Shown here in pieces: positions 1-32,358 of a DNA stretch of 34,118 nucleotides (positions are counted from its first letter, which is position 1; every line of letters starts with the position of its first letter). The DNA comes from Chloroflexota bacterium (GTDB taxonomy: Bacteria > Chloroflexota > Dormibacteria > Aeolococcales > Aeolococcaceae), in contig JAQBPH010000335.1 of the NCBI GenBank assembly GCA_028287625.1, forward strand, positions 1-34,118, written 5' to 3'. The notes under the pieces are model-generated. The model did not search any database. It was not told the origin of the DNA and was given only the letters and a program-made list of their open reading frames with translations. The translations under genes were made by a program, and so were the position numbers.

Positions 1-158
1 TCATCGAGACCGGCAACCTGCGAGCCTTCCTCCAGGAGAGCCTCTACGTGGCCATGTTCTTCTCCGGCTTCACCAGCATGTTCGCGTACTGGCTGGGGAT
101 CGGCATCGGCAAGTGGCTCGCGGTCTACCCGGCGACCAAGTTCCTGCAGCAGGCGTAG
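1..158 (+). CDS. pmoA: CuMMO (methane/ammonia/hydrocarbon monooxygenase) subunit A, 3' end only
   Basis: Not in the ORF track. Frame 3 reads IETGNLRAFLQESLYVAMFFSGFTSMFAYWLGIGIGKWLAVYPATKFLQQA*, with TAG at 156-158. This matches the PmoA/AmoA C-terminus (E-x-G-x-L-R-x-F followed by the last TM helix) and sits 11 nt before subunit B. Confidence 0.9.
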   Translation, partial: IETGNLRAFLQESLYVAMFFSGFTSMFAYWLGIGIGKWLAVYPATKFLQQA

Positions 159-169
159 CGGGTCAGATC

Positions 170-1447
170 ATGAGAAAGCACAAGCACATCAAGCGCATGG
201 CCTGCCTCCTCGTGGGGATGGTGGGTGCCCTCATGCTCGGTGGTCTGCGGGCGACGCCGGCCCTGGCGCACGGCGAGGCCGCACAGCCCGCGTTCCTGAA
301 GGAGGGGACGATCGCGTTCTGGGACGTCAAGTTCTCCTCCAACACGATAAAGATGGGCCAGGATCTCACCATCACCGGGAAGGTCCGCTTCCTCGAGGGG
401 TGGCCGAACAACCTCGCCGATCCCAGCCTGGTGTGGCTGAGCGCGGTCGCCCAGGGGCCGAGGGTCCTGGTGATGGAGCGCTACATCAACGATCAGTTCA
501 CACCGTCCTCGTGGGTCGTCGAGAAGGGCAACAACTACACCTTCAAGGAGGTGCTGCGGGGCAGGTCCCCGGGCACCTACCACGTCCATCCGATGATGGC
601 CACCAAGGGCGCCGGCCCGATCATCGGACCGGGTCAGTACGTCACCGTCGTGGACACCGGGGCCGAGTTCGCCAACAACGTCAACCTGCTGAGCGGTGAG
701 ACGATCGATCTCGAGACCTACGGCCGCGGCACGGTGATCTCCTGGCACTTGATCGTCGTCCTGGTCGCGGTCCCCTGGCTGCTCTTCTGGCTGCTCCGAC
801 CGCTGGTGATCCGTGCCAAGTACGTGGGGACGGGCGCGGAGGCCGAGCGGCGGCTGGTGAGCAAGCGCGACCGCATGATCGGGTATGGAATCGGCGCCGT
901 GATGATCGTGGTGCTCCTCATCGGCAACCTCATCACCAGCAACAGCTACCCGGTGACCATTCCGCAGCAGACGATCCGCATCGCACCGCCCGCGCTGCCC
1001 CCGTCGCCCCAGCTCGCCTCGCTGGATCCCTACACGACGACCGTCACCTATGGACCGACCACCCAGACGGTGCTGGCAACGCTCAAGGTGACCAACACCG
1101 GTCACTCCCCGGTCATACTCGACCGCTTCGCCACCGCGAGCTACGAGTTCGCCAATCAGGCGACGCACCCCAACGCTCAGAACCCCTTCACGGTCGACAA
1201 TCCGAACCCCATCGCCCCCGGCGAGACGAGGAAGCTCCAGGTCACCATGGCCGACGCGGTCTGGCAGACGGACAACCTCATCCCGATCAACGAGGTGCAG
1301 CTGATCCTTCGCGGCGTGTTCCTCTTCCGCGACTCGACCGGGACCGAGGCGCCGGTGGAGATCAACGCTCCGATCAACGTCGACTACAAGGTGCTGCTCG
1401 AGCACGGCAACGCGCGGCTGCCTCAGCTGCACACGAACCAATTCTGA
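170..1447 (+). CDS. pmoB: CuMMO subunit B (PmoB/AmoB/HmoB)
   Basis: Signal peptide ending ALA, then mature N-terminus HGEAAQPAF. Also EGWP, YHVHPM (HxH), GPIIGPG, IDLETYG, two TM helices and a second cupredoxin-like domain (NPIAPGETR). ATG 170 is preferred over the ORF-track start at 113. Confidence 0.96.
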   Translation: MRKHKHIKRMACLLVGMVGALMLGGLRATPALAHGEAAQPAFLKEGTIAFWDVKFSSNTIKMGQDLTITGKVRFLEGWPNNLADPSLVWLSAVAQGPRVLVMERYINDQFTPSSWVVEKGNNYTFKEVLRGRSPGTYHVHPMMATKGAGPIIGPGQYVTVVDTGAEFANNVNLLSGETIDLETYGRGTVISWHLIVVLVAVPWLLFWLLRPLVIRAKYVGTGAEAERRLVSKRDRMIGYGIGAVMIVVLLIGNLITSNSYPVTIPQQTIRIAPPALPPSPQLASLDPYTTTVTYGPTTQTVLATLKVTNTGHSPVILDRFATASYEFANQATHPNAQNPFTVDNPNPIAPGETRKLQVTMADAVWQTDNLIPINEVQLILRGVFLFRDSTGTEAPVEINAPINVDYKVLLEHGNARLPQLHTNQF

Positions 1448-1453
1448 CGTGAC

Positions 1454-2188
1454 GTGGTGATGCTCAGACGACCGACGCGCGCCGCCCTCCTCCTCGCAGG
1501 CCTGCTGGCCGGCGTGGTCTCGATCGCGGGGGCACCTCAGGCCTCGGCCCACGGGGGGGGCATCGGTGATTCCCTTCTCGCCGGCTCGATGTGCGCGCAG
1601 AAGCTCGACGGCGCCGAGGTCGACCTGAACATCTTCCTCGCCGGCGGGGGGCAGCCGTCCTGTGACGGCATGCCCCCCGGTCCGGCCACGCTCACCTTCG
1701 ACCTCGTCGACCCGTGGCTCCGGCAGGTCCCGGTGGGCGTGGAGGTCATTCAGACGGACGCCGGCTCGCGTGGCGTCGCCTCCCTGCCGGCGAAGGTGTA
1801 TCCCGGGGGGGTCGTCTCCCTCCGCGTCAGGCTGGACAGGCCGGGGACGTACACCGCCGCGGTGGTCTCCGGTGGATCGCGGGCCACATTCCCCATCGGC
1901 GTCGGTGGACTCGTCAGCGTGGCCTCGGCGGAGCGCTTCCTCAGCACTCCCATCGGGTGGCTGTCGGAGGCTCTGCTGGCGCTCGTCGTCGCTGGCCTGG
2001 GTTGGCTCGGCTTCCGGCGCCTCCGCGCGTCGAGGAGAACGGAGCGGGCGAGGAGGGGTGCTGCGACGATCCTGGCGGATCGGAGTGGCGCGGTCGCGCG
2101 ACCGCACCAGCTCCCCTCCGACGAGGCATCGGGGCCGACGGTGAATGGAAACGGGGCCCAGAGGAAGAAGACGCTGATCGGGCCCTGA
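1454..2188 (+). CDS. pmoD: PmoD/AmoD-like copper-associated membrane-anchored protein
   Basis: Signal peptide ending ASA, then HGG. Two Cys (SMC...SCDGMP), LTFDLVDPWLRQVPVGVEVI, LPAKVYPGG, PGTY and a C-terminal TM helix match the PmoD pattern. Lies 6 nt after pmoB. Confidence 0.75.
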   Translation: MVMLRRPTRAALLLAGLLAGVVSIAGAPQASAHGGGIGDSLLAGSMCAQKLDGAEVDLNIFLAGGGQPSCDGMPPGPATLTFDLVDPWLRQVPVGVEVIQTDAGSRGVASLPAKVYPGGVVSLRVRLDRPGTYTAAVVSGGSRATFPIGVGGLVSVASAERFLSTPIGWLSEALLALVVAGLGWLGFRRLRASRRTERARRGAATILADRSGAVARPHQLPSDEASGPTVNGNGAQRKKTLIGP

Positions 2189-2238
2189 CCGGGGCTCGCA
2201 GCGAACCGTGTCGTGGCAACAGTAAGCAGGGGAGGTTG

Positions 2239-2550
2239 ATGGTGCTGGCGGAATTCGACGTCAACACTGTGTTGTGGGTGTGGATCGTCTGCACCTTTGC
2301 AACGGCCCTGGGCATCGTCGGTGTGGTGCTGCTCCTCTTCGGGATCACCAGGAGCGCGCTGATCATCGACGAGCACAGTGATTCCATCATCCTCGCCGCG
2401 CTCCGAATCCGTGAGAACACCGGTGCACTCAGCGGACTGCAGACCACGATGGCTGCGGGCCAGGATGTGATGCGCACCGTGAAGGCGGTGGAGGCCGACG
2501 GTGCTGAGATCCTGGGAATGGCGGCAGCCGGACCCGGTGGGGGGCTTTGA
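2239..2550 (+). CDS. Small single-TM coiled-coil protein (array gene 1)
   Basis: GGAGG at 2231-2235. N-terminal TM (VLWVWIVCTFATALGIVGVVLLLFGI), then an amphipathic helix containing IRENTGAL. C-terminal part of ORF 1714..2550. Confidence 0.8.
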   Translation: MVLAEFDVNTVLWVWIVCTFATALGIVGVVLLLFGITRSALIIDEHSDSIILAALRIRENTGALSGLQTTMAAGQDVMRTVKAVEADGAEILGMAAAGPGGGL

Positions 2551-2553
2551 CGA

Positions 2554-2910: not shown

Positions 2911-2959
2911 ACGGCAACGGGTTCGATCTTCTTCGAGTACAACGCCGATCACGGAGGGT

Positions 2960-3244: not shown

Positions 3245-3251
3245 AAACCGA

Positions 3252-3883: not shown

Positions 3884-3940
3884 CACGCCCGAGCAGCCCC
3901 TCGCACCAGCAGCTCACTCAGGCTCACCAGAGGAGATCCG

Positions 3941-4555: not shown

Positions 4556-4558
4556 GCG

Positions 4559-16700: not shown

Positions 16701-17351
16701 TCAGATCAGATGATGCCTGCGGGCGACCGCCAGGGCTTCGACCCGGTTGCGGGCGTCGAGCTTCTCGAGCAGCGATTGCAGGTAGCTCCGCACGGTGCTG
16801 CGGGTGAGGTTGGCGACCTCGCAGATCTCCTCGGTGGACCGTCCCTGCGCCAGGAGCCACAGCATCTGTCGCTCTCGAGGGGTGAGACCCAGGCTCCGGC
16901 CCTCGTCCTCTCGAGCGGGTCTGGAGCGTGAGGCCAGATCCGGCCGGACACGTGCATCGACCACCAGCGCCCCGGCGTGGATGTCGGTCAGGGCCCGGAT
17001 CAGCTCCCCCTCGCGGGTGTCCTTCACCAGGATCCCAGCCGCGCCGGCGTCGAGACACGCGTCGAGGATCTGGTGGTCGACGAAGCCCGTGAGGATCACC
17101 GTCTTTGCCCACGGGGCCACGGTCCGCAGCTGGTGGCAGAGCTCCGCGCCATACAGATCGGGCAGGGACAGATCGGTGAGGATGATGTCCGGTCGCAGGG
17201 AGGGTGCCATCGCGACGGCATCGCGACCGGTGAGCGCCTTCCCGATCACCCGCATGTGGCTGGCCGCCCGAAGGAGATGCTCGATGCCCTCGAGCACGAG
17301 CGGATGGTCGTCCACCAGGAAGATCCCGATGTCGGGCGCGCCCGTGGTCAC
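16701..17351 (-). CDS. NarL/LuxR family response regulator
   Basis: LVDDHPLV, IILTDLSLPD receiver and LTPRERQML...TVRSY HTH. Confidence 0.93.
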   Translation of the reverse strand: MTTGAPDIGIFLVDDHPLVLEGIEHLLRAASHMRVIGKALTGRDAVAMAPSLRPDIILTDLSLPDLYGAELCHQLRTVAPWAKTVILTGFVDHQILDACLDAGAAGILVKDTREGELIRALTDIHAGALVVDARVRPDLASRSRPAREDEGRSLGLTPRERQMLWLLAQGRSTEEICEVANLTRSTVRSYLQSLLEKLDARNRVEALAVARRHHLI

Positions 17352-18556
17352 TGGTCGGGGTTCACGGGCACCGAGGCCCGGAGGGTCAGGCCGCCGTCCT
17401 CGTTCGTCAGGATGACCAGCCGGCCGCCCATACCCTCGATGCGTTGGGAGAGCCCCACCAGCCCCCAGCCGGTGCTCCCCGCGGGGTAGGGTCGCAGCTC
17501 GAAGTGCGGTGTCAACCCGACGCCGTCGTCCTGGATGATCACGCTGACCTCTGACCCGGTGAAGTGGACGGTGAGGATCACGCTCGTGGCCGCCGCATGC
17601 TTCTCCACGTTGTGCAGACCCTCGCGCACTGCGGTGATCAACGCCACGGCGACGGCGCGGGGAAGGGCGATGGGCGTTCCCAGCACCACGACGTGGACCG
17701 GTACCCCACTTCTCTGCGAGAACGCATCGGCGTCGACGCGTGCCATGATCGAGAGCGCGTCGTCCCCCGTGGCCTCCCCGATGGTGTGGAAGGTCTCACG
17801 GAGAAACGAGGCGGCCCGCGAGGCCTGAGCCTCGATCTCCTGGAGCTGGCAGACGAGGTCCGGAGCCACCTGGGTGGCGCGCTCCTGGCCACGCTGCGCC
17901 GACACGCCGATCCCGAAGAGGATGTGGCCCAGGTGGTCGTGCAGATCGCGGGCGATGCGGTAGCGCTCGGCGTGCACCGCCTGGTTGACCGCCCGCTCCG
18001 CGGTCAGGGCGGCGAACAGCGACGGCGCGAGGCTGCCCGCCAGCCTCAGCTGAAGATCGAGCAGCCGATCGCCCAGCTCGCCCACGGAGCGGCGGGCGGC
18101 GTAGAGCACCCCGAGTGCGTGGCCACCATGGCTGATGGGCACTCCGCTCATTCCTCCCACGCCCTCGCCGTCCACGACCACACTGCAGTAGTCCCTGGTG
18201 ATGGACGGATCGTGGGCGTAGTCGGCGACCGCCACGGGCGCCTCCGTGGCGAGGACCTTCCCGCCGATCCCTGCGCCCCTGTGGACGCGCAGTTTCCCGA
18301 AGGCCTCGGTGCGCCCTCCGGCGACGCCGCGCATCTGCAGAACGCCAGGTGGTTCCTGGATCGCGACGGACACCAGGTCCATGCCCAGGCAATGGCGAGC
18401 CTCCGCGGCCGCCCGCACCGACCAGACGCTGCTCTCGACCAGGCCGTCGAGCCAGCGGCCCATCTCGACGAACTTGTCGAGGTCGGCGAGAGCCTGGTTG
18501 ACGGCGTCATCGTCGAGCTTCCGGCGCCGAAGAGCGGTTCGTAAGGCCGTTCTCAT
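17348..18556 (-). CDS. Cytoplasmic GAF-domain sensor histidine kinase (HisKA_3)
   Basis: GAF (GAGIGGKV...DY), ERYRIARDLHD, EGLHNVEKHA, DDGVG, GWGLVGL. Overlaps the regulator by 4 nt. Confidence 0.92.
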   Translation of the reverse strand: MRTALRTALRRRKLDDDAVNQALADLDKFVEMGRWLDGLVESSVWSVRAAAEARHCLGMDLVSVAIQEPPGVLQMRGVAGGRTEAFGKLRVHRGAGIGGKVLATEAPVAVADYAHDPSITRDYCSVVVDGEGVGGMSGVPISHGGHALGVLYAARRSVGELGDRLLDLQLRLAGSLAPSLFAALTAERAVNQAVHAERYRIARDLHDHLGHILFGIGVSAQRGQERATQVAPDLVCQLQEIEAQASRAASFLRETFHTIGEATGDDALSIMARVDADAFSQRSGVPVHVVVLGTPIALPRAVAVALITAVREGLHNVEKHAAATSVILTVHFTGSEVSVIIQDDGVGLTPHFELRPYPAGSTGWGLVGLSQRIEGMGGRLVILTNEDGGLTLRASVPVNPDQ

Positions 18557-19776: not shown

Positions 19777-19886
19777 TTAATTGGTCATCCGTGTGGGGGC
19801 GTACTATGCTGTCGGCGCGGGATGGATCCCGGGCGATGTGCGGGGAATGGGCGGGGCCACCTGCCGGTGGTGCGGGGGATGCGGGG

Positions 19887-21065
19887 ATGGTAGCCAGCTT
19901 GGGTAGGCCTCCGGGCGGCGCCCTGACGAAGTTCGTCGCCCCGGAGATTCTCCTGGGGATGGGTGCGCTGAGCGAGATCGGCTTCGCGGTCCGCCGGATG
20001 GGAGCCGTGCGCCCGCTGCTCGTCAGTGATCCCGGGGTGTCGGACGCGGGATGGGCCGATGAGGCGCTGTGCCACCTCAGGGGCGTGGGACTGCTGCCGA
20101 CAGTGTGGACGGGCCTGACCCCGAATCCGAAGGACGTGGAGGTGCACGCCGGATTCACGGTCTACCAGGAGCACGAGTGCGACGTCCTCGTCGTCGTGGG
20201 CGGAGGCAGTTGCATCGACGCTGCCAAGGGCATCGCGATCCTCGCAAGCAACGGGGGCAGGATCCTCGACTACGAGGGCGTCGACAAGGTCGTCCGGCCG
20301 ATCCCTCCGATCGTCGCGGCGCCGTCGACCGCAGGCACGGCATCGGACCTCTCGCAGTTCGCGGTCTTCACCGACACGGCACGCCATGCCAAGGTTACGC
20401 TGATAGGCCACGCCCTGGTCCCCGACATCTCGATCACCGATCCTCGTTTGCTGATGACGATGCCGTCGTGGCTGACCGGGACCACTGGGCTGGATGCCCT
20501 GACACACGGCATCGAGGCGTTCGTGTCCCGCGCCTCCAGCTGCCTGACCGACGATTACGCGCTGAGCGCGATCAGCCTGGTGCATCGCCATCTGCTCATG
20601 TCGCTCGAGCAGCCGGACTCGGTCGAGCACCGACTTGGGATGGCACGGGCGAGCATGTCTGCCGGCCTCGCGTTCAGCAACGCACTCCTCGGTGCCACCC
20701 ATGCGATCTCGCATCAGCTGGGTGGCGCCCTGGACCTGCCTCACGGCATGCTGAATGCGGTGCTGCTTCCCCATGTCATCCGCTACAACGCCGAGGCGGT
20801 CCCCGATCGCTTCCTGCGCGTGGCCACGGCCTTGGGCCTCGATACCGATCGCATCTCGTCAACCGAAGCCGGGGAGGCCGCCGCAGCGGCCGTCACGGAG
20901 CTGGCCACCTGCCTGGGAGTGCCCCGCCGGCTGCGCGACATCGACGTCCGGCGGGAATGGCTGCCCTCCTTCGCCGAGACCGCCCTGCAGGATGCCTGCA
21001 TCACCACCAACCCAAGGCCGGTGACCAGGGAGCATGTCCTGGCGCTCCTCGAAGCCGCTTTCTAG
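19887..21065 (+). CDS. Iron-containing (group III) alcohol dehydrogenase, ErcA-like
   Basis: KFVAPEI, TPNPK, GGGSCIDAAKG, STAGT, GLDALTHGIE, GATHAISHQLGG, PHG, TNPR. Directly upstream of a MadS-like kinase. Confidence 0.9.
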   Translation: MVASLGRPPGGALTKFVAPEILLGMGALSEIGFAVRRMGAVRPLLVSDPGVSDAGWADEALCHLRGVGLLPTVWTGLTPNPKDVEVHAGFTVYQEHECDVLVVVGGGSCIDAAKGIAILASNGGRILDYEGVDKVVRPIPPIVAAPSTAGTASDLSQFAVFTDTARHAKVTLIGHALVPDISITDPRLLMTMPSWLTGTTGLDALTHGIEAFVSRASSCLTDDYALSAISLVHRHLLMSLEQPDSVEHRLGMARASMSAGLAFSNALLGATHAISHQLGGALDLPHGMLNAVLLPHVIRYNAEAVPDRFLRVATALGLDTDRISSTEAGEAAAAAVTELATCLGVPRRLRDIDVRREWLPSFAETALQDACITTNPRPVTREHVLALLEAAF

Positions 21066-21082
21066 GCGGAGGAGCCGACCGG

Positions 21083-22411
21083 ATGAGTGTGGAGGCGGAG
21101 CGCGACGAGGCGCTGGCCCTGCTGACCGGCGTCCGGTCGTACAAACTCTCGTACTACAGCGACTACGTCCACACGGCGAGGAGGCTGGACCGCAACATCC
21201 GCGCTCTGGCCGTGGCCTCTCGAACGCTCACCAGTCTGAGTGGAGGCCCGGCGGAGGTCCTCAGCGTCGCTGTGGTCTCGGCCGTCGAGGTCTTCGGGGG
21301 CGAGTGGGCAGCGGCGGCGTTCGAGCACTCGACTGTCGCGCAGACGCCTCACCTCGTGGTTGCCGAGGCCAGCGGGCTCGTCGACCCGTCGCTGTTGTCC
21401 GACTCGACACGTCAGGTTCTCGACCAGGTCAGGGAGTTGGCGCCGGGCCGCGTGGAGGCCCTCTCGCTGTCAGGTCGACCCACCCTCATCGCTCCATTCG
21501 TCTGGCAGCAGCAGGTCTGCGGATGGCTCGTCGTCGCGCTCCCCCTGTGCCGCGAGATCGAAAACGCCGATCGGGCGCTGCTTGCGACCCTCACCAATCA
21601 CATCATCGCGGCCGCGCAGAGCAGCTTCCTGCTCACGCGGAGCGAACAGTTGCGTGCGGAGGCGGCGCGGTCGTGTGACGAGGCCCTGGCGACGGCCGCG
21701 TCGCTCCAGGCTGCGAACGCTCAGCTGCGCAGGGCTCATGCCGCCCTGGCGGAGGCCCGTCAGCGTGAGCTGATCGAGACCGAGCGTGAACGCCTCGCTC
21801 GGGAGCTCCACGACAGCATCGCACAGCGGGTGCTCACCATCGGGATGAACGCGGAGTGGTGCAGGGTGAATGCGGGTGCGCCCGTGGTCAGCGAGCGGAT
21901 CTCCGAGATCAAGCGGCTGGCGCGAGAGACGGTGGCCGAGATCCGCTCTGCCATCTTCAACCTCTCCGCTGCCGACGAGTGCATCGACGACGATATCGTC
22001 ATCGCAATTCGGAGGCTGGCTCGTGAGCTCCGGAGCTGGGGTGTCCACGTGACGGTACGGCACCAGGGGACGCCGACCATCCTCGGACTTGCGGTCCGCC
22101 GGGCTCTGGTCCGCTGCGCTCGCGAGGCTCTCTTCAACGCGCTCATCCACTCGGGCAGCCCAAGAGTAGCGGTAACCCTGGCCTTCGACCCAGGGCGCCT
22201 GTGCGTCACCGTGAGGGACCAGGGCAGCGGTGACGCCGCGGAGCTTCGTGGGCATCTCCACGCCGCCACCGCATCGCAGGGGGATGGCTATCACCGAGGG
22301 CTTGCGTACGTCGACGCAACTCTCCGTCAGGTGGGCGGCGCACTGGAGATACGGAACGCCCGCCGGAGAGGGATCAGCATCGTGGCAACGGTCCCCCTGG
22401 ACACGCCGTGA
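21083..22411 (+). CDS. madS: MadS-like sensor histidine kinase
   Basis: GGAGGA RBS. N-terminal LTGVRSYKLSYY, GAF-like region, ERERLARELHDS, EALFNALIHS, DQGSG, YHRGL. Confidence 0.82.
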   Translation: MSVEAERDEALALLTGVRSYKLSYYSDYVHTARRLDRNIRALAVASRTLTSLSGGPAEVLSVAVVSAVEVFGGEWAAAAFEHSTVAQTPHLVVAEASGLVDPSLLSDSTRQVLDQVRELAPGRVEALSLSGRPTLIAPFVWQQQVCGWLVVALPLCREIENADRALLATLTNHIIAAAQSSFLLTRSEQLRAEAARSCDEALATAASLQAANAQLRRAHAALAEARQRELIETERERLARELHDSIAQRVLTIGMNAEWCRVNAGAPVVSERISEIKRLARETVAEIRSAIFNLSAADECIDDDIVIAIRRLARELRSWGVHVTVRHQGTPTILGLAVRRALVRCAREALFNALIHSGSPRVAVTLAFDPGRLCVTVRDQGSGDAAELRGHLHAATASQGDGYHRGLAYVDATLRQVGGALEIRNARRRGISIVATVPLDTP

Positions 22412-22669: not shown

Positions 22670-23350
22670 TCACAGAAGGCCCAGCCGCAGGGCTTCGGAG
22701 ACGACGCCCGCCCGCCGTTGGATGCCGAGCTTCTCGCATACGTTGTGCAGATGGAACTTGACCGTCGTTGCACTGATGAAGAGCTCGGAACCGATCTGCT
22801 TGTTCGAGAGCCCGCGGGCGACCAGTCGCACCACCTGCTGCTCCCGATCCGTGAGGGTCAGATGCGCCCCGCTGGTTCCCTGGGTGGCGAGTGACCGGGC
22901 GAGGGCGTCCGCTGTGTGGCTGTCCAGAGCGTGCCTCCCCTCACGCACCGCCTTGATGCTGTCGGCGAGGACCGCGGCATCGACGTCCTTGAGGACATAG
23001 CCCATCGCCCCGCTCTGGAGGGCATCGACGACCAGGCGGTCACTGACGAACGTCGAGAGGATGAGCACCGCGACATCGGGGAACCGGCTGCTCAGATCCC
23101 GACACAGGTGCAGGCCGGAGGTGTTGTCGCCCGGGCAGAGCTGAAGATCAGCCAGGACAACGTGCGGCGATGTCCTTTCCACGACGTCGAGGGCCTCCGC
23201 CGCGGTCGACGCCTCGCCGACGAACGTGATGCTCGGCTCCTGTTCCAGGATCAATCTCAGGCCGTGACGCACGATGGCGTGGTCGTCCACGATCACCAGC
23301 CTGATCAGGTGGGACGCCGTGTCGGGCTCCAGAACGTCACCCACTACCAT
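22670..23350 (-). CDS. madR: MadR-like NarL/LuxR response regulator
   Basis: IVDDHAIVRHGLR, VVLADLQL, GYVLKDVD, LTDREQQV...GLSNKQIG...TVKFH. Confidence 0.85.
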   Translation of the reverse strand: MVVGDVLEPDTASHLIRLVIVDDHAIVRHGLRLILEQEPSITFVGEASTAAEALDVVERTSPHVVLADLQLCPGDNTSGLHLCRDLSSRFPDVAVLILSTFVSDRLVVDALQSGAMGYVLKDVDAAVLADSIKAVREGRHALDSHTADALARSLATQGTSGAHLTLTDREQQVVRLVARGLSNKQIGSELFISATTVKFHLHNVCEKLGIQRRAGVVSEALRLGLL

Positions 23351-25117: not shown

Positions 25118-25300
25118 TCACCCGTTGCGCTGCCGCCGGCGCCACTCGTGCCATCGGCGGCGCAGGATCCGACGACGCTCGCGCCACCATGGGCCGAAAC
25201 CGCCCTCCTCGTCCCACCGGCTCTCCAACTGCAGCACCCAGAGAAGGATGACGATCATGAAGAACAAGCCGGGAAAGATGAATGGCAACAGTCTACCCAT
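25118..25300 (-). CDS. Small single-TM protein with Arg/Trp-rich tail
   Basis: ATG overlaps the mftM stop region. MGRLLPFIFPGLFFMIVILLWVL... Confidence 0.5.
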   Translation of the reverse strand: MGRLLPFIFPGLFFMIVILLWVLQLESRWDEEGGFGPWWRERRRILRRRWHEWRRRQRNG

Positions 25301-26198
25301 GGCCGCAGCCCTTCTCCGCATCCGCAATCTCCTCCTCCGGCCGATGCGGTGGACCGGGGCGGGTGGAGCTCGTCCCCTCTGTGCAGATTGCATTCTCCGC
25401 ACGGTCGGCAAGGAGCCAGCCACCGTCCGACTCCCAGACCGATGACCTCCAGCCGGCCGCCGGTGCCATGGCGCGAAGCGTGTCGAGCGAGAAGGCTCGC
25501 ACGTGGCCGTACACCGGAGCGGGGGTGTTCTCCAAGGGGACGGTGACGATCACACGCTCGCGGGCCACCCGTGCCATCTCGGTGACCACCGCTGTCCCCC
25601 GGGAGGCGGGGAGGTGCTCGAGGACGTGCGCTGCGACCACGGTGCCGACGGTCGCATCTCCAAACGGTAGACGTGCTCCGTCCGCGGCCACAAAGCGCGT
25701 GCGGCTCGCCCGACCGCTCGCGTTCTGGCCGGCGAGCGCCACCATGGGCGGCGAGATGTCCACACCCACAACGGTGAGGTCCGGAGAACGTTCACAGAGC
25801 AGGAGAGGTAGGAAGCCGAAGCACGAACCGACGTCCACGACGCTGGCACCGAGGACGAGGTCGGCGACCTGCCGGTAGATCCGTGCGAAGGTGGCGATCG
25901 TGCCCGCCATCCTCTCCTTCAGAGGCGCGAGATCGCGGAGACCCCGAAGGGTATTGCGATAGAAGCGGGCCCACGCCTCGTCCACGGTGGGCGCGCCCCT
26001 GAGCACCACCGACACGAACGCTCTCTCGAAGGACCGCACGTCAACCACGAGACCGAGGGGGCCGAGCTCGGACACGAGGTGGTCGCCCAGGTCGTTGTCG
26101 ACGGTGAGCCGTTCCAGGCGAGGGTGGATACGCCCCCCGGCGATCCGGAAGTGCGGGGTCTCGACCATCGACGGTGATCTGCGCTCCTCATCCAGCAC
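25293..26198 (-). CDS. mftM: Mycofactocin-associated class I SAM methyltransferase (MftM-like)
   Basis: VDNDL, AWARFYRNTL, VVDVGSCFGFL, HVLEHL, VTVPLE...YGH. Follows madC. Start is GTG 26198 or ATG 26168. Confidence 0.8.
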   Translation of the reverse strand: MLDEERRSPSMVETPHFRIAGGRIHPRLERLTVDNDLGDHLVSELGPLGLVVDVRSFERAFVSVVLRGAPTVDEAWARFYRNTLRGLRDLAPLKERMAGTIATFARIYRQVADLVLGASVVDVGSCFGFLPLLLCERSPDLTVVGVDISPPMVALAGQNASGRASRTRFVAADGARLPFGDATVGTVVAAHVLEHLPASRGTAVVTEMARVARERVIVTVPLENTPAPVYGHVRAFSLDTLRAMAPAAGWRSSVWESDGGWLLADRAENAICTEGTSSTRPGPPHRPEEEIADAEKGCGHG

Positions 26199-27714
26199 GT
26201 CTGCCGCCCGCCACGGCTGCCATGACCTGGTGCAGGGTGTGCTCCAACCCGTGGAAGTCGCGCACCACCTCGATGCGATCACACCACTCCGCGTACAGCG
26301 GCAGGTCGCACTGGCCGAGCGCCCAGGAATACTGGGGTTCGGGGGTCAGCCACAACACGCTGCGAGCCTGGCGGGCGACGGCCTCGAAGACGGCGAGCTC
26401 GGGGTCGTTGCCGTTCCCGCGACCGTCCCCGAGCACCAGGAGCGTCGACCGGTGCGTCACCGCCGGGAGGTGGTGGTCGCGCAGCTGTCGTAGGGCGCGG
26501 CCGTAGTCGGAGGGAGCCGCGACGTCGATGACGTCGCCACCGAAGAGGAGACCGAGCGCACGCTCCAGGGGCTGGTCGTGGAACAGCTCGGTGACCTCGA
26601 CGAGCTCGTTCACGAAGGCGAACGTCCTCACCCGTGGGACGAGCCGCTGCAGCCCGTGGACCATGTGGAGCGTGAACCGGGCCGAGTTCCGGACCGAGAG
26701 GCTGACATCGACCAGCACCACCAGCCGTGGCCGGTGATGGGTGCGAGCCATGGTGATGGGATGGAATGGGACACCCTCGCTGCGCAGGTTCGCCCTCATG
26801 GTCCGTCCCACGTCGACCCGGCCACGGGGGCCGACTCGCTTCCGATGGGTCAGCGCGCCCTTCAGCTGGCTGGTCAACCGCCGCAGGGCGTCCTCCATGT
26901 GCGCTCTCTCGTCCTCGCTGATGCGTTCGACATACGCTGTCGCGCTCGCGTCGCGGGTCTCGTACTTTCGCCCCTGCGCGGCCAGCCGCTCGAGATGAGC
27001 CTTCAGCAGCTCCGGCAGGTTCTCGATCATGCCCTCGACCTGGCGTCGCCGCGCGGCAGCCCCCTCCGGGGAGTCCGATCCGTCGTCCAGCCAGTCGAGG
27101 AGCGCGTCCTGCTCCGCGATCGTCAGCTCCATGCCGATGCGCGTGGCGCCCGGCGCGGACAGGTCCCGCGCAGACGACGCACCGCGGAGGCGCATCGTGT
27201 CGAGCTGAACGGTCCTGAGGTCGCGGCGGTCGTCGGCCGCGCCCGGCTCCTTGCTCAGGATGAGCTGTTCGGTCAGAGAGGCGATGTCGATCTTCTCCGC
27301 TGGCTGGTGGAGGTTGTACTGGGTGGCGAGGTCGCGCGGGTCGAAGTACTCACGGATGTCGACGGGGTCGTCATGGCTGTGCCCGTCGTCCGGGATGGTG
27401 GAGGGCTCCTCGGACAGCGTGACCCGTGCCACGCTGGACTGGTCGTTGAGATGGTCGTGGCCGTGCTCGCGCCGGTCCTCGGCCTCCTGCCCGAGCAGCG
27501 GCGAGACCCGGAAGTACCGCTCGAAGAGGTCCTCGTACATGGGCCAATCGCGCTGCTCCTTGACGAGCGCGGCACCCAGGCCCTCCTTGAGCGTCTGGCG
27601 GTCGCGGAAGCCGAGCGCCTGTGCGACGGTCATGGCGTCGAGCACCTCGGTGGTCGACACCCGGACGCCGTGGTCACGCAGGAGCCGGGCGAAGCGGTGC
27701 AGTCCCCGTTCCAC
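26188..27714 (-). CDS. madC: MadC / CoxE-like VWA domain protein
   Basis: LHRFARLLRDHGVRVS, GRVDVGRTMRANL, MIDAS DVSLSV, SDYG, LGDGRGN, WLTPE. Confidence 0.88.
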   Translation of the reverse strand: MERGLHRFARLLRDHGVRVSTTEVLDAMTVAQALGFRDRQTLKEGLGAALVKEQRDWPMYEDLFERYFRVSPLLGQEAEDRREHGHDHLNDQSSVARVTLSEEPSTIPDDGHSHDDPVDIREYFDPRDLATQYNLHQPAEKIDIASLTEQLILSKEPGAADDRRDLRTVQLDTMRLRGASSARDLSAPGATRIGMELTIAEQDALLDWLDDGSDSPEGAAARRRQVEGMIENLPELLKAHLERLAAQGRKYETRDASATAYVERISEDERAHMEDALRRLTSQLKGALTHRKRVGPRGRVDVGRTMRANLRSEGVPFHPITMARTHHRPRLVVLVDVSLSVRNSARFTLHMVHGLQRLVPRVRTFAFVNELVEVTELFHDQPLERALGLLFGGDVIDVAAPSDYGRALRQLRDHHLPAVTHRSTLLVLGDGRGNGNDPELAVFEAVARQARSVLWLTPEPQYSWALGQCDLPLYAEWCDRIEVVRDFHGLEHTLHQVMAAVAGGRRAG

Positions 27715-27726: not shown

Positions 27727-28944
27727 TCAGCGCCGGCTGAAGGGGGAGGGGTCGGGCCTACCCCAGTATCCTCGGTCGAAGCGCCCGGGCCGGTCCTTCG
27801 CGAGGCGCACCGCGCGGCCATCCTCGGGATCGATGCCGGTCGCCAGGGAGGGGGCCTGTCCCGGCTCGCCGCGACCGTGACCGTCCTTCCCCACCGGCAC
27901 CGTCGTGCGGACACCGCGCGCGCTCTCCTCGGCCGGGTGGGGATGACCGTGATTGCCATGCGGGTGTCCGTGGTCCAGCTGGCCGGTCGCTGCTGCCGAC
28001 CGCCCATCGGGCTCGGAATGCAGGCTCTTCAGACGGGGCAGCGCCTGCAGCGCACGACCGACGTCGCGCTCGTACTTCAGCACCACGCACATCGTCTCCG
28101 CGACGACGGCCGCGTCGAGGTCCTCGACACCGAGCACGGCGAGCGTGTGCGCCCAGTCCAGCGCCTCCGAGATGCTGGGTGGCTTCCTGAGATCGAGAGT
28201 ACGCAGCTCGCGGATGATCGCGACCAGGCTGCGGGTGAGCTCGTCCGAGAGGGCGACACCCTTGGAGCGGATGATCTCGACCTCCCGGTCGGCGCTGGGA
28301 TACTCCAGCGTCAGATGCAGGCAGCGGCGCTTGAGCGCGGCCGACAGATCCCGGGTGTTGTTCGAGGTGAGCACGACGTACGGACGCCGGCTGGCCGTGA
28401 AGGTCCCGATCTCGGGGACGGAGACCTGGAAGTCCGACAGGGTCTCGAGGAGCACGGCCTCGAGGGCCTCGTCGGCTCGGTCCACCTCATCGATCAGCAG
28501 TACCGGCGGCTCAGGGGAGCGGATGGCCTCGAGCAGTGGGCGCGGAGCAAGAAAGCGCTCCGAGAAGAAGACGCCCTGGTGCGCGCCGATCTTGTCGACC
28601 GCAGCCTCGAGAGTGTCCGCGTCCTCGATCAGGGTCTGGATCTTGTCACGCAGGAGCTGGGTGTAGAGGAGCTGCTTGCCGTAATCCCATTCGTAGAGGG
28701 CACGGGTCTCGTCCTGCCCCTCGTAGCACTGCAGCCGGATGAGACGGCGACCCGTGACCCGCGCCAGGGTCTTCGCCAGCTCGGTCTTCCCCACCCCGGC
28801 GGGGCCTTCCAGGAGCAGTGGCTTCTCCAGGCGGCTGAGGAGAAACACTGCGGTGGCGATGCGCCGGTCCGCGATATACCCGTGCTCACGAAAGCCATCG
28901 ACCACCGTGTCGACGCTGGCGAATTGCGGACCGGCATCCAGCAC
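27727..28944 (-). CDS. madB: MadB / MoxR family AAA+ ATPase
   Basis: Walker A GPAGVGKT, RLQCYEG, Walker B LLIDEVDR, LKRRC. His-rich C-terminal extension. AGGAGG RBS. Confidence 0.92.
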   Translation of the reverse strand: MLDAGPQFASVDTVVDGFREHGYIADRRIATAVFLLSRLEKPLLLEGPAGVGKTELAKTLARVTGRRLIRLQCYEGQDETRALYEWDYGKQLLYTQLLRDKIQTLIEDADTLEAAVDKIGAHQGVFFSERFLAPRPLLEAIRSPEPPVLLIDEVDRADEALEAVLLETLSDFQVSVPEIGTFTASRRPYVVLTSNNTRDLSAALKRRCLHLTLEYPSADREVEIIRSKGVALSDELTRSLVAIIRELRTLDLRKPPSISEALDWAHTLAVLGVEDLDAAVVAETMCVVLKYERDVGRALQALPRLKSLHSEPDGRSAAATGQLDHGHPHGNHGHPHPAEESARGVRTTVPVGKDGHGRGEPGQAPSLATGIDPEDGRAVRLAKDRPGRFDRGYWGRPDPSPFSRR

Positions 28945-28976
28945 CGAACGCCCTCCTGAGGAGCGGTGAGCAGGCG

Positions 28977-29012
28977 GTGCCCGGCGCCGGCTCCTGGGCC
29001 TGCGCCGGGCAC
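28977..29012 (-). terminator. GC-rich stem-loop between mdo and madB (attenuator or mRNA-stabilising hairpin)
   Basis: Perfect 11-bp inverted repeat GTGCCCGGCGC / GCGCCGGGCAC just after the mdo stop. No U-tract. Confidence 0.55.
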
Positions 29013-29035
29013 GTGTCTGTGTGTCTGTCGTCGCG

Positions 29036-30325
29036 CTAGAGGAGATCGTCGAGAGAGCCGGTCATGCAGTGCTCGACCACCGGCCGCACGGTCTTGAAGG
29101 TGCACTCCTTGGGGTTCCCCGGGGTGCACGCGTCGCCCAGAACGTGGTTGGTGATGCGATCGACGTCTGCCGCGTCCCCGATGATCTCCTTGGCCTTGGC
29201 GTAGAAGGGCGTCGGGCCCTGACCCAGTCGGTTCTTCACGTAGCTGTCCTGCTTCACAGCCACGAAGTTCTCGGGGATGCCCACGTCGCGGAGCAGCTGG
29301 ATCGAGGCCCGCAGCGCCTCCCTGGCCGCCTGAACCGTCGTCATGCCCCTGGTGTCGACACCCATGACCTCGGCGATGTCCGCGAACCGCTGGTACACGA
29401 CGGGCATATTGAAGGCCCACACCCGGGGGAGAGCGACCGCGTTGTTGAGGCCGTGATGGGTGTCGTAGAAGGCCGACACCGCGTGGGAGATGGAGTTGAT
29501 GATCCCGAGGCCGCCGGAGTTGAACGCCTGCGCCGCGATGTACTGCGCGTACATCATGCCCTCGCGGCCGGCCAGGTCATTCGGATTCCAGGTGGCGGTC
29601 CGCAGGCTCGACACCGTCAGCCGGATGGCGTGGAGGGCGTTGCCGAGCGAGGGGTGGAAGTTCAGCCGCGAGACGTACGGCTCGGACGCGTGGGCGAGAA
29701 CGTCGAAGCCGCACTGCGCCGTGTAGTCCATCGGACAGTCGTAGTACAGCGTGGGATCGTCGATGGCAAGGGACGCGATGCAGGGATCGTCGAAGGCGAC
29801 GTACTTGTGCGGATTGTTGGGATCGGTGGTCGTGTCGGTGATCACGTACGCCCAGGAGGTCTCCGACCCCGTCCCCGCCGTGGTGGAGACGGCGATGTGG
29901 GGCGGATTCTTGGGGTTCTCCGACTTGTTGAAGCCCTCGAACTCATTGACGTTGCGGCCGTCGTGCGCCACGGAGACACGGGCGCCCTTGCATGCGTCGT
30001 GGCTCGAACCGCCGCCGATGGAGACGAAGCTGTCGCACTTCTCGCTCTGATACAGGGCCACAGCGTCCATCACGTTGTAGTCCTTGGGGTTCGACTCCAC
30101 CTTGTCGAAGACCGTGGGCTCGATGCCGTGGTACCTCAGGGAGCCCACGATGCGCTCGACGATGTCCGAACCGCGCAGGCCGGTGGTCATCACCAGGGTG
30201 CGCTGGAAGCCCAGCTTCTTGGCCTCGGGGCCGATGAGCTCGTGAGCGCCGGGTCCGAGAAGGGCCCTGGGGAACGGATGGAACTCCTTGATCGGGAACA
30301 GCCTGATCAGTTCTTCGACTTTCAT
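29036..30325 (-). CDS. mdo: NDMA-dependent methanol dehydrogenase (nicotinoprotein Mdo/Mno/ThcE, group III ADH)
   Basis: FPIKEFHPFPRALLGPGAHE, VESNPKDYNV, GGGSSHDACKG, TTAGTGSETSWAYVITD, FDVLAHASEPY, HHGLNNA, GDACTPGNPK. Confidence 0.94.
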   Translation of the reverse strand: MKVEELIRLFPIKEFHPFPRALLGPGAHELIGPEAKKLGFQRTLVMTTGLRGSDIVERIVGSLRYHGIEPTVFDKVESNPKDYNVMDAVALYQSEKCDSFVSIGGGSSHDACKGARVSVAHDGRNVNEFEGFNKSENPKNPPHIAVSTTAGTGSETSWAYVITDTTTDPNNPHKYVAFDDPCIASLAIDDPTLYYDCPMDYTAQCGFDVLAHASEPYVSRLNFHPSLGNALHAIRLTVSSLRTATWNPNDLAGREGMMYAQYIAAQAFNSGGLGIINSISHAVSAFYDTHHGLNNAVALPRVWAFNMPVVYQRFADIAEVMGVDTRGMTTVQAAREALRASIQLLRDVGIPENFVAVKQDSYVKNRLGQGPTPFYAKAKEIIGDAADVDRITNHVLGDACTPGNPKECTFKTVRPVVEHCMTGSLDDLL

Positions 30326-30493: not shown

Positions 30494-30658
30494 GGCGGCT
30501 CAAGCCACAGTGGGAGTTGTGGAGGTGCATCGACGTCGCCTATGGTCTCCACGCCGGGCAGGGCAGTCGCAGATCGTAGTTACATCGGTTCCGAGATGGC
30601 CTTCGGGCGGTGTCGCGGTTGGCCGCTTCACGGGGTTGTCTGTCAGGGGAGGAGTGTC

Positions 30659-30862
30659 TTGGACCGGAGCCATGCTGGCACGCCGGAGCACGTCTCGGAT
30701 GAGGACGCGACGGAGGAGGCCTGCTCGGTCGCCGAGGACGAGGTTCCTGCCCGCTCCCATGCGGTGCCCTCGTCGCCTTCCGATGCCGATTCTGACACGG
30801 AGTCGATTGCCGAGCTCCTGCTGGAGGAGGTGTCGATCGATGGTATGTGCGGCGTCTACTGA
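30659..30862 (+). CDS. mftA: Mycofactocin precursor peptide
   Basis: Ends LLEEVSIDGMCGVY*. GGGGAGGAG RBS before TTG 30659 (start inferred). Confidence 0.93.
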   Translation: MDRSHAGTPEHVSDEDATEEACSVAEDEVPARSHAVPSSPSDADSDTESIAELLLEEVSIDGMCGVY

Positions 30863-30863
30863 T

Positions 30864-31154
30864 GTGGTGCCTCGCTCCCCTGGGCGCGCTCCGTTCAGGG
30901 TGGACGGCGCCTACCGGCTGAGCCCGTCCGCAGCACTGCGCCCGGAGCAGTTCGGTGCGCTCGCGTATCACTACGGGAACCGGCGGCTCACCTTTCTCAA
31001 GTCGCCTCAGCTGGTGTCGGTGGTGCGCGCGCTGGAGGCGCACGCGACTGCGCAGGAGGCGATGGACAGCGTCGGCGTCGATTCCGCGCGTCGCCCGGAT
31101 GTCGAGCGCGCCCTTGCCGGGCTGCTCGAGCTCGAGGTGCTCGATGCTCGCTGA
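30864..31154 (+). CDS. mftB: Mycofactocin RRE chaperone MftB
   Basis: LRPEQFGALAYHYGNRRLTFLKSP. Between mftA and mftC. Confidence 0.92.
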   Translation: MVPRSPGRAPFRVDGAYRLSPSAALRPEQFGALAYHYGNRRLTFLKSPQLVSVVRALEAHATAQEAMDSVGVDSARRPDVERALAGLLELEVLDAR

Positions 31155-32358
31155 TCGGGAGTCGGCGCGGGCGGGTGGGGGGTCTCTCGTCGAGCGGTTG
31201 AAGGTTGGCCTCGACGCCCCCATCTGCCTGACCTGGGAGCTGACCTATGCCTGCAACCTGGCCTGCGTTCACTGCCTGTCCTCGTCCGGAAGGCGCGACC
31301 CGGGCGAGCTGACCACGGCCGAATGTCACCGACTGATCGACGAGTTCCGCCGGATGCGGGTCTTCTACGTCAACGTCGGTGGCGGGGAGCCGACCATTCG
31401 CCCCGACTTCTGGGATCTCGTCGACCATGCGGTGGCGGAGGGGGTGGGGGTCAAGTTCTCGACGAACGGGATTCGCATCGACCGCGACCGAGCCCGGCGC
31501 CTCGCGGGCACGGACTATGTCGACGTGCAGATCTCGATCGACGGCGCCGACGCCACCGTGAACGACGCGATACGGGGTGCCGGCTCGTTTGCCATGGCGC
31601 AGCGGGCCATGGAGCATCTGGCGGAGGCCGGCTTTCAGAACTTCAAGGTCAGCGTCGTGATCACGCGGCACAACGTCGGCCAGCTCGACGCCCTCAAGGC
31701 GATCGCCGACCGCCATGGCGCGACGCTGCGCCTCACGCGGTTGCGCCCCTCCGGGAGGGGGGCGGACGTGTGGGGTGAGCTCCACCCCACGGCGTCGCAG
31801 CAGCGCCATCTCCACGCCTGGCTCCTCGAGCACGGCGAGACGGTGCTGACAGGGGACTCCTTCTTCCACCTGTCGGGTTTCGGCCGGGCGCTCCCCGGCC
31901 TCAACCTGTGCGGCGCCGGGCGCATCGTCTGCCTCGTCGACCCGGTTGGGGATGTCTACGCATGCCCGTTCGCAATCCACGAGGCCTTCCGCGCAGGGAG
32001 CATCCGGGAACCCGGTGGGTTCGCGAGCGTGTGGCGTGACTCGTCGCTCTTTGCCGAGCTGCGCACCCAGCAGGTGTCCGGGCCGTGCACCTCGTGCGGT
32101 GCATTCGAGGCGTGCCAGGGCGGCTGCATGGCGGCGAAGTTCTTCACAGGCCTGCCCCTGGACGGCCCGGACCCCGAGTGCGTGAGGGGATTCGGCGAGC
32201 AGGCTCTGGCCGGTGTCTCGCCAGGCTCGCGGCCGCGCCCCGTGCCCGACCATTCGCGGCCGAGTGTCTCTCGTCCGGGCCTCAACCGGCTGCCCCTGGG
32301 TGATGCCACCCCGGGCCGTGCGTGCAGCACCAGTCCCGTCCTCCCCGGCGGCGGGTAG
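31144..32358 (+). CDS. mftC: Mycofactocin radical SAM/SPASM maturase MftC
   Basis: PICLTWELTYACNLACVHCLSSSG (CxxxCxxC), GGGEP, NLCGAG, CPF, CxxC...CQGGCMAAKFFTG, DPECV. Confidence 0.95.
   Translation: MLADRESARAGGGSLVERLKVGLDAPICLTWELTYACNLACVHCLSSSGRRDPGELTTAECHRLIDEFRRMRVFYVNVGGGEPTIRPDFWDLVDHAVAEGVGVKFSTNGIRIDRDRARRLAGTDYVDVQISIDGADATVNDAIRGAGSFAMAQRAMEHLAEAGFQNFKVSVVITRHNVGQLDALKAIADRHGATLRLTRLRPSGRGADVWGELHPTASQQRHLHAWLLEHGETVLTGDSFFHLSGFGRALPGLNLCGAGRIVCLVDPVGDVYACPFAIHEAFRAGSIREPGGFASVWRDSSLFAELRTQQVSGPCTSCGAFEACQGGCMAAKFFTGLPLDGPDPECVRGFGEQALAGVSPGSRPRPVPDHSRPSVSRPGLNRLPLGDATPGRACSTSPVLPGGG

Follow-up and report, generated by a model that had tools for sequence, protein, structure and literature searches.

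A soil metagenome contig joining a deep-branching copper membrane monooxygenase lineage to a mycofactocin-associated alcohol module

Copper membrane monooxygenases (CuMMOs) control how the oxidation of methane, ammonia and short alkanes begins, and newly placed lineages of these enzymes have changed views on soil gas consumers. The stretch of DNA analysed here (the window) is a whole contig, C201, of a metagenome-assembled genome (MAG); it has 34,118 bases and a GC content of 68.8%, and carries CuMMO genes near its start and the genes of a mycofactocin-associated alcohol dehydrogenase, Mdo, near its end. The question raised by this locus is whether the two sets of genes truly share one molecule, and whether they could serve one pathway in which a gas is oxidized to an alcohol and then to an aldehyde with mycofactocin in place of pyrroloquinoline quinone (PQQ), as a sequence-only reading had proposed. 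The reading preferred here, to which we assign a probability of about 0.5, is that of a two-module contig of a soil bacterium with a CuMMO, a probably transferred alcohol island and, possibly, successive oxidation of gas and alcohol. What is new is a CuMMO lineage with its own PmoD-like family, lying on the same DNA as an apparently transferred Mdo/mycofactocin module. Since the GC content is high, genes were picked by third-position GC and then named with Pfam and NCBIfam profiles, the Pfam scan covering 40 open reading frame (ORF) translations of the window. The bin to which the contig was assigned, G000, comprises 4.92 Mb in 688 contigs (72.6% GC; completeness 88.5%, contamination 3.9%).

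The CuMMO genes (module A) open the window:

3..158, plus strand: 3′ end of pmoA, the last 51 codons plus stop; PF02461 positions 193-233 match at 3-125
170..1447, plus strand: pmoB, complete, 425 aa; PF04744, 316 bits (cut-off 22.7)
1454..2188, plus strand: pmoD-like gene, 244 aa; signal peptide, beta-sandwich domain and C-terminal membrane helix

The sequence-only reading had named pmoA, pmoB and a pmoD-like gene. The pmoB gene proved to be complete and the product of the pmoD-like gene to have the expected fold, but pmoA is reduced to its final 51 codons. The contig start falls inside pmoA, the remnant of which agrees with the C-terminus of the full-length PmoA encoded on a metagenome contig named L118. 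PmoB was assigned to its family by the PF04744 profile match; with the NCBIfam AmoB_BACT model it scored 326 bits, slightly short of the cut-off of 336. It keeps the histidines of the CuB site: H34, H138 and H140 (the N-terminal His and the HxH motif) were invariant in alignments of 27 and 8 sequences, and lined up with the motifs AHGE and HVH that hold the copper ligands in PmoB from Methylococcus capsulatus (3rgb_A; E 3.5e-71). The pmoC gene, which had been left to a genome search, was found neither in the window nor, as a PF04896 match, in the 88.5%-complete bin. Contig C548 of the same bin is identical to C201 over its first 127 bases and then continues not into pmoB but into a gene paralogous (71%) to the pmoD-like one; the split between the two contigs is an assembly fork within pmoA, and the upstream part of the CuMMO is probably missing because of it. 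A scan of metagenome contigs detected one short relative of the window-type CuMMO, the above L118 (2447 bases), which contains the full pmoA, 102 bases upstream of pmoA, and the same pmoA-pmoB-pmoD-like order as the window. None of the contigs that encode the nearest relatives of PmoB and of the PmoD-like protein exceeds 6.1 kb.

The pmoD-like gene starts 6 bases past pmoB, and its product had no match in Pfam or NCBIfam. The AlphaFold2 model of this protein showed a predicted local distance difference test (pLDDT) score of 75-93 over residues ~45-150, and a helix at 166-210; its top Foldseek match in the PDB was the soluble domain of PmoD from Methylocystis sp. Rockwell (6cpd; E 3.5e-8, TM 0.63-0.68). 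Homologues adjoin pmoB in L055, L095 and L042 (30-39% identity) and in L118 (83%). This fold match and the pmoB-adjacent homologues bear out the label given to the gene, and the modelled cupredoxin-like periplasmic domain, together with the membrane anchor and the CuMMO-adjacent gene, suggests the protein to be an accessory protein of the PmoD/AmoD type. The layout of signal peptide, beta-sandwich and C-terminal helix, and the place after pmoB, are those of PmoD, which is the best structural match; however, the window protein is only 17-19% identical to it and lacks a Pfam or NCBIfam match. Cysteines C47 and C70 are invariant in the alignment of the family, while some paralogues have another residue in place of the His that follows the predicted signal-peptide cleavage site. 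Three further paralogues are present in the bin, on C548 (L122; 71% aa identity), C272 (L119; 64%) and C672 (L120; 50%). No DNA match to the pmoD-like gene was found across seven other species of the bin's genus (the genus relatives), and only four homologues of the protein were found among 5.8 billion proteins.

In that same protein set, PmoB had three matches at 80-86% identity, one at 52%, one at 42% and 62 others at 41% or less. When 185,579 species genomes were searched with an 8-sequence PmoB alignment, the best match was at 39% (Nocardioides luteus), followed by Smaragdicoccus (38%) and several Chloroflexota MAGs; a single-protein PmoB scan of the species genomes found nothing. The PmoA and PmoB trees that the sequence-only reading had suggested were then computed. 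The PmoB tree contained 59 rows (LG+G4, quick search), 90 rows having been left out that were mostly near-duplicate proteobacterial particulate methane monooxygenases (pMMOs) and unnamed proteins; references from ammonia-oxidizing bacteria, Verrucomicrobia and archaea are in neither tree. The window protein formed a clade with the unnamed proteins P0002-P0005 (SH-aLRT 99), within a group of enzymes from Nocardioides, Smaragdicoccus, Chloroflexota, Dormibacteria, Acidimicrobiia and Actinomycetota. This group was split, at SH-aLRT 100, from the one holding proteobacterial pMMO and the Binatia-labelled, Bradyrhizobium/Comamonadaceae and Methylomirabilota (NC10) enzymes. The PmoA tree, in which the full-length PmoA of L118 was used, concurred, the lineage appearing as a long branch on a very short internode (length 0.023). 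With the references in these trees, a placement as pMMO in the strict sense was not supported, the window clade being split from Methylococcus, Methylocapsa, Methylocystis, Methylomonas and NC10 at SH-aLRT 100 (PmoB) and 98 (PmoA). As to the actinobacterial hydrocarbon monooxygenase (HMO) and particulate butane monooxygenase (pBMO), these lie in the same large group, yet the window enzyme forms a separate clade, with a PmoB identity of 38-39%. Dormibacteria lie within Chloroflexota in GTDB. The window CuMMO thus falls away from proteobacterial, NC10 and Binatia pMMO and near the actinobacterial enzymes, and is a new deep-branching lineage on the actinobacterial/Chloroflexota/Dormibacteria side.

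Given that the enzyme groups with those of Nocardioides and Smaragdicoccus in both trees, short alkanes (C2-C4) would be a likelier substrate than methane, and are the more conservative guess. Mycobacterial HMO oxidizes C2-C4 hydrocarbons. The same is stated for the CuMMO of Nocardioides CF8 in work cited in PMC8262859. That methane is the substrate seems very unlikely. A different CuMMO is common in the bin's genus: PmoB was found in six of the seven genus relatives (for example on G001:C8 (L011), G007:C89 (L017), G003:C58 and G005:C520), and in none of 33 genomes from other genera of the family and order. This genus-type PmoB is only ~31% identical to that of the window, and branches as a clade apart, together with a Candidatus Dormiibacterota record (L100) and unnamed proteins, the pmo operon being 75-86% identical in nucleotide sequence to that record. 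No genus-type pmoB copy was seen in the bin itself.

The alcohol genes (module B) occupy the last part of the window:

19791..21065, plus strand: ErcA-like iron-type (group III) alcohol dehydrogenase (ADH), Fe-ADH; Pfam Fe-ADH and ADH_Fe_C; NF041833 (ErcA) 457, cut-off 550
21068..22411, plus strand: MadS-like sensor histidine kinase; NF047786, 280 over the full model, cut-off 500
22670..23350, minus strand: MadR-like LuxR-type response regulator; Response_reg and GerE; NF047785, 255, cut-off 300
25293..26282, minus strand: mftM, mycofactocin oligosaccharide methyltransferase; NF041255, 215, cut-off 200
26188..27714, minus strand: madC-like VWA protein; VWA_CoxE; NF047783, 261, cut-off 600
27727..28944, minus strand: madB-like AAA (MoxR-type) ATPase; NF047784, 364, cut-off 475
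29036..30325, minus strand: mdo/mno, N,N-dimethyl-4-nitrosoaniline (NDMA)-dependent, mycofactocin-associated methanol/alcohol dehydrogenase; TIGR04266, 673, cut-off 625
30542..30862 (ORF), plus strand: mftA, mycofactocin precursor ending in IDGMCGVY; TIGR03969, 43.4, cut-off 25, over residues 86-106
~30903..31154, plus strand: mftB; TIGR03967, 94, cut-off 33
~31189..32358, plus strand: mftC, radical SAM/SPASM maturase; TIGR03962, 625, cut-off 265
32383..33006, plus strand: [2Fe-2S] small subunit of a molybdenum hydroxylase; Fer2_2 and Fer2; glyceraldehyde dehydrogenase gamma, 245, cut-off 290
33010..34116, plus strand: molybdopterin large subunit, aldehyde-oxidoreductase/CoxL-like, cut by the contig end; Ald_Xan_dh_C and MoCoBD_1

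The mdo, madB, madC and mftM genes form one minus-strand operon; mftABC are divergent from mdo and are followed by the molybdenum hydroxylase pair, the small subunit of which begins 25 bases past mftC. The true start of mftA is probably later than that of the ORF given. The identities proposed earlier for mdo, mftM and mftABC held, all of them scoring above curated cut-offs; for Mdo this is accompanied by an mftM in the same operon and an adjacent mftC. Those of MadB, MadC, MadS, MadR and ErcA held in part: each was the top-matching family (for the Mad proteins, across the whole model), but the scores lie under the curated cut-offs, and these proteins are therefore named '-like'. From these profile matches, mdo/mad/mftM/mftABC constitute a bona fide Mdo system. 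The Fe-ADH is 54-55% identical to one from Nocardioides. The molybdopterin large subunit scored 335 bits, on the portion present, with the glyceraldehyde dehydrogenase alpha model, and the pair is plausibly an aldehyde-oxidizing enzyme.

The remaining genes of mycofactocin synthesis, which had been left to a genome search, were partly found on other contigs of the bin: MftD (722 bits) is encoded on C584 and MftF (422 bits) on C8, neither of them being in the window. MftG-like genes of the bin scored 327 bits, under the cut-off of 387. The statement that the window has no PQQ-dependent methanol dehydrogenase gene was confirmed, no PQQ dehydrogenase being present among the window ORFs covered by the Pfam scan, and the check was extended to the 88.5%-complete bin with the same outcome (TIGR03075). 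As for C1 assimilation, the bin contains RuBisCO but no hexulose-phosphate synthase was found in it. The bin also has a native mycofactocin locus (C314, positions 2675-5466; L121), where the gene for an Rxyl_3153-type NDMA-dependent zinc ADH (541 bits, cut-off 440) immediately precedes a second mftC (583 bits), 65% identical to that of the window.

Module B was probably acquired horizontally from Actinomycetota, since Mdo and MadB are closer to Nocardioides than to loci of the same phylum, and none of the seven genus relatives has Mdo. The window Mdo and MadB are 82% and 70% identical, respectively, to those of N. luteus, in which the MadB gene adjoins mdo, and 62% and 58% identical to the Mdo loci of two same-phylum genomes. 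Those two were the only ones with an Mdo above the cut-off among 200 other sampled genomes of the bin's phylum, and the window Mdo is the sole member of its family in the eight genomes of the genus. Unlike the other parts of the contig, which are far more distant, the molybdenum hydroxylase pair (32383-34116) shows 88-90% nucleotide identity with genus relatives and also with a second copy that the bin has on C442. This match ends ~100 bases inside the small-subunit gene, and the DNA upstream, mftC included, is not shared; the edge may mark the limit of an island or a site of recombination.

The physical linkage of the two modules was examined in public soil metagenomes. Sequence words of the first 10 kb were found in 20 soil-metagenome runs from 17 studies; six rows, from three studies, had >0.9 of the words, and the best-matching run may be the source sample of the contig. 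No RNA dataset was listed as containing the stretch. Logan contigs from four runs (three studies) were placed along positions 9501-29500, joints between contigs with 20-30-base sides being treated as repeats or other organisms. One Logan contig of 18,577 bases, from a run of a different study (X2), spans positions 11518-29500 with 29 differing letters, and contigs of runs X1 and X4 tile the same span; in all, three runs besides X2 have contigs that tile 9501-29500. A chimera within 11.5-29.5 kb is therefore unlikely. Depths of left and right contigs were 10.9 versus 12-14, 11.2 versus 12.7, 24.9 versus 17-25, and 5.7 versus 6-7 in the four runs, an agreement that argues weakly for one molecule or one organism. 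In run X5, depth was near nil in 14837-16170 and 20173-22840 (cover gaps). The linkage claimed by the sequence-only reading was thus upheld by independent contigs from another study, and the presence of the CuMMO and the alcohol module on one molecule is, overall, quite likely. The zone at 10460-11550 is GC-rich (~71-74%) and takes in the end of the gene for a solute-binding protein together with the ORF after it; paralogues or relatives probably have words in common with this zone.

Co-location does not make the modules one operon. The pmoD-like gene is 17.6 kb from the first gene of the alcohol module and 26.8 kb from mdo, and ~17 predicted genes of unrelated families, on both strands, lie between the two separate units. 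At other CuMMO loci, within the flanks covered, no Mdo or mft gene lies near pmoB (the search is given below). What speaks for a common role is that both window modules are absent from all seven genus relatives, yet stand together on one contig, and that no other obvious alcohol dehydrogenase accompanies the window CuMMO. A gas-alcohol-aldehyde route through mycofactocin is possible because the linkage is real, the Mdo system is bona fide and no PQQ enzyme was found; set against this are the separation of the modules and the presence of Mdo in only two of 16 other CuMMO-bearing genomes. That the modules act in one pathway is accordingly a tentative proposal, with the odds somewhat against it. 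In such a pathway the CuMMO would hydroxylate a small gas in the membrane, C2-C4 alkanes being likelier than methane; Mdo would then oxidize the alcohol in the cytoplasm, passing the electrons to mycofactocin; the aldehyde might be converted into the acid by the molybdenum enzyme or another dehydrogenase; and reduced mycofactocin would be re-oxidized toward the respiratory chain. The electron route, like the substrate and the coupling, is what we infer from these genes. For the return of electrons to the CuMMO that the sequence-only reading had raised, the data gave no sign; the published sink is MftG, which hands mycofactocinol electrons to respiration (PMC11778925).

Several findings weigh against this pathway or against its attribution to the bin organism. 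Each module is a transcription unit of its own, with 17-27 kb between the two, and the case for coupling them is a single co-location. No homologue of Mdo, MadB, MadC, MftM, MftB or MftC was found (E ≤1e-8) in the stretches of up to 6 kb (more for four genus relatives) on either side of pmoB at 84 other CuMMO loci. Among the 16 other CuMMO-bearing genomes (six genus relatives and ten from the same side of the tree), the two with Mdo are both Nocardioides, and have it on different contigs from the CuMMO; conversely, the two same-phylum genomes with Mdo lack PmoB. The association of CuMMO with Mdo is not general, and the window is a single observation. With pmoC and most of pmoA missing from both window and bin, the genes present account for only part of the enzyme. 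In all four runs, 10.46-11.55 kb is covered by short pieces overlapping by ~26-30 bases, and no listed piece bridges 10,490-11,518; chimerism, which would have undone the linkage, is unlikely at 11.5-29.5 kb but conceivable at 10.5-11.5 kb.

Bin membership is doubtful too. The native bin contigs C442, C463 and C650 are 90-97% identical to their closest relatives, while the homologous genes of C201 show only ~70-76% nucleotide identity to genus members (coiled-coil cluster ~70%, SBP56 ~75%, solute-binding protein ~72%, mftC ~71%), the bin keeping its own separate copy in each case. C548 is likewise distant, and on it lies a second yidC that shares 76.6% identity with the native copy; the latter is 90% identical to that of a relative. 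On the other hand, neither the tetranucleotide profile (C201 ranks 32 of 133 contigs ≥10 kb and is not an outlier) nor the paralogue fraction of its genes (0.23, inside the range of other large contigs) separates C201 from the rest of the bin. The contig is either an accessory, partly xenologous island of the bin organism or a co-binned contig of a related organism. Since membership is uncertain, the bin-level findings (no PQQ dehydrogenase; MftD, MftF and MftG-like proteins; RuBisCO without hexulose-phosphate synthase; the native Rxyl_3153-type ADH) apply to C201 only conditionally.

These points feed three other explanations. The modules could be coincidental neighbours, independent accessory pieces sharing a variable region, with Mdo serving growth on ethanol or other external alcohols, as it does in mycobacteria and rhodococci, and other dehydrogenases handling the CuMMO products; we hold this to be possible, though not the likelier account. 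It would fit the separate transcription units, with genes for SBP56, a solute-binding protein, a DinB/MDMPI-like protein, a cupin and a DoxX protein between them, and the distribution of the genes, six of seven genus relatives having a CuMMO and none of them Mdo, two of 16 other CuMMO hosts having Mdo, and two same-phylum genomes having Mdo without PmoB. Mdo is also a broad enzyme: it is reported as required for ethanol and methanol use in Mycolicibacterium smegmatis, and Rhodococcus needs a homologue to oxidize ethylene glycol (PMC11778925). The bin, moreover, has another mycofactocin-linked ADH, of the Rxyl_3153 type, beside its native mftC. Chance is harder to reconcile with two modules missing from all seven genus relatives and found together on one contig, and with the lack of another obvious alcohol dehydrogenase next to the CuMMO and of any PQQ enzyme match in the bin. 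An assembly or binning artefact, either a join of two organisms or a correct contig from an organism other than that of the bin, is rather unlikely without being negligible. The fork at the contig start, where C548 shares 127 bases and then diverges, the fragmentation at 10.46-11.55 kb in four runs, the position of the contig genes as outgroups (70-76% nucleotide identity) to genus-wide copies of which the bin has its own, the second yidC on C548 and a GC content of 68.8% against 72.6% for the bin would all agree with it; the 18.6-kb contig from another study across 11.5-29.5 kb, left and right depths that agree within each of four runs, the unexceptional tetranucleotide rank and paralogue fraction, and a contig 3′ end 88-90% identical to genus members do not.

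The remaining explanation, a methanotroph with a true pMMO whose methanol is oxidized by Mdo and mycofactocin instead of a PQQ enzyme, is improbable. The CuB ligands are kept, Mdo scores above its cut-off, no PQQ dehydrogenase was found, the RuBisCO of the bin would allow assimilation at the level of CO2, and mycobacterial methanotrophs with soluble methane monooxygenase (sMMO) use a non-PQQ ADH (PMC12366331, PMC12542659). Methane as the substrate is nevertheless at odds with the trees, which place the enzyme outside the clades of known methane oxidizers, away from the proteobacterial, NC10 and Binatia-type pMMOs. The characterized relatives on its side of the tree, mycobacterial HMO among them, oxidize C2-C4 hydrocarbons; for Nocardioides CF8 this is as cited in PMC8262859. 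Further, the bin has no hexulose-phosphate synthase match, and the ownership of its RuBisCO is uncertain. A bolder version would have a widespread Dormibacteria/Chloroflexota soil bacterium oxidizing methane or atmospheric trace hydrocarbons by an unrecognized CuMMO lineage, with the alcohol handled wholly in the cytoplasm by Mdo and mycofactocin. We regard it as a long shot; if true, CuMMO methanotrophy that depends on mycofactocin and needs no PQQ would exist outside every methanotroph phylum known so far.

The preferred reading, a two-module contig with possible successive oxidation of gas and alcohol, has partial precedents. The arrangement of mdo followed by AAA and VWA genes and mftM is that of the Mdo/Mno-MftM cluster of M. 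smegmatis, Amycolatopsis methanolica and Nocardioides, an association described in PMC9679996; mftM accompanies mdo in 99% of mdo-bearing genomes (PMC9679996, PMC11778925). The window differs in having mftABC divergently adjoining mdo, the molybdenum hydroxylase pair after mftC and a CuMMO on the same contig; its bin is not Actinomycetota, and mftD and mftF lie elsewhere in that bin. Candidatus Mycobacterium methanotrophicum and strain MM-1 resemble it in combining, in a high-GC genome without MxaF/XoxF, a gas monooxygenase with a non-PQQ ADH (PMC12366331, PMC12542659), but their enzyme is an sMMO and that of the window a CuMMO; a 2025 commentary states that no pMMO-bearing mycobacteria have been found (PMC12366331, PMC12542659). 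Binatota MAGs, from uncultured soil bacteria, have a CuMMO and a nicotinoprotein dehydrogenase of the MNO/MDO type in one genome (PMC8262859). They belong to another phylum and to other CuMMO clades, the Binatia-labelled P0010 lying across the PmoB tree split, and PMC8262859 nowhere mentions mycofactocin, nor do the portions of it drawn on here describe physical linkage of CuMMO and MNO/MDO. The actinobacterial CuMMOs (Nocardioides pBMO, Smaragdicoccus/Mycobacterium HMO) share the side of the tree and the pmoA-pmoB order, and two Nocardioides genomes have Mdo as well. The window clade is nonetheless separate, contains only unnamed metagenome sequences and has a PmoD-like gene after pmoB; in the Nocardioides CuMMO genomes Mdo is on another contig, and the host bin of the window is Dormibacteria-like, not actinobacterial. 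The pMMO of M. capsulatus Bath (3rgb) has a PmoB homologous over residues 14-402, with the N-terminal His and HxH copper ligands kept in the window protein; proteobacterial pMMO is otherwise set apart by the split at SH-aLRT 100, by an identity of ~30-35%, and by the lack of a PQQ methanol dehydrogenase match in the window's bin.

The general idea of a gas monooxygenase with a non-PQQ alcohol dehydrogenase is therefore already in print, and the pathway is less unusual than the sequence-only reading had it, given mycobacteria with sMMO and non-PQQ ADH, Binatota with CuMMO and MNO/MDO, and two Nocardioides genomes with CuMMO and Mdo. A limited literature search found no published account of the window CuMMO lineage, of a Dormibacteria CuMMO or of CuMMO-mdo/mft physical linkage. 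Nor did it find a paper joining mycofactocin with pMMO, the papers mentioning both mycofactocin and methanotrophs being, by their titles and the openings of their abstracts, on genome mining or on peptides that are made by ribosomes and modified after translation (RiPPs); PMC9455692 mentions Dormibacter and CuMMO terms and draws no link between them. The sequence type is rare while the organism is apparently recurrent, with few protein relatives and near-identical DNA in soil metagenomes of several studies. Should the CuMMO products feed Mdo, a membrane CuMMO would be joined to mycofactocin, a testable case of cytoplasmic PQQ-free alcohol oxidation; should the modules be unrelated, a new CuMMO clade with a PmoD-like family and a likely inter-phylum transfer of an mdo/mad module would still stand.

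No tRNA genes were found in the window, no promoter-like sites were found in 1-8000 (four unremarkable terminator-like sites were), and no integrase or transposase domains were detected among the window ORFs scanned with Pfam. One further feature was annotated ahead of module B:

17348..18556, minus strand: GAF-domain HisKA_3 sensor kinase; Pfam GAF, HisKA_3 and HATPase_c; weak MadS/MctS similarity (75 bits)

Besides a solute-binding protein, the intervening genes include four tandem paralogues of ~200 aa at 3941-6344 (with 2554-2910 and 6382-7056), which show weak similarity to the coiled-coil family DUF7310; this cluster is kept as a block, at ~70% nucleotide identity, in every member of the genus, and the bin has a second copy on C463. 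The genes at 12503-16506, which have no counterparts in the genus, comprise two unknown ORFs as well as genes for a DinB/MDMPI-like protein that includes an SCP2 domain, for a cupin and for a membrane protein of the DoxX family. A full-length member of the SBP56 family (selenium-binding protein/methanethiol oxidase) is encoded at 7752-9194; it scored 621 bits with Pfam and 93, against a cut-off of 650, with the MtoX equivalog model. The bin has a 66% paralogue of it on C309, and of the seven genus relatives at least four possess homologues.

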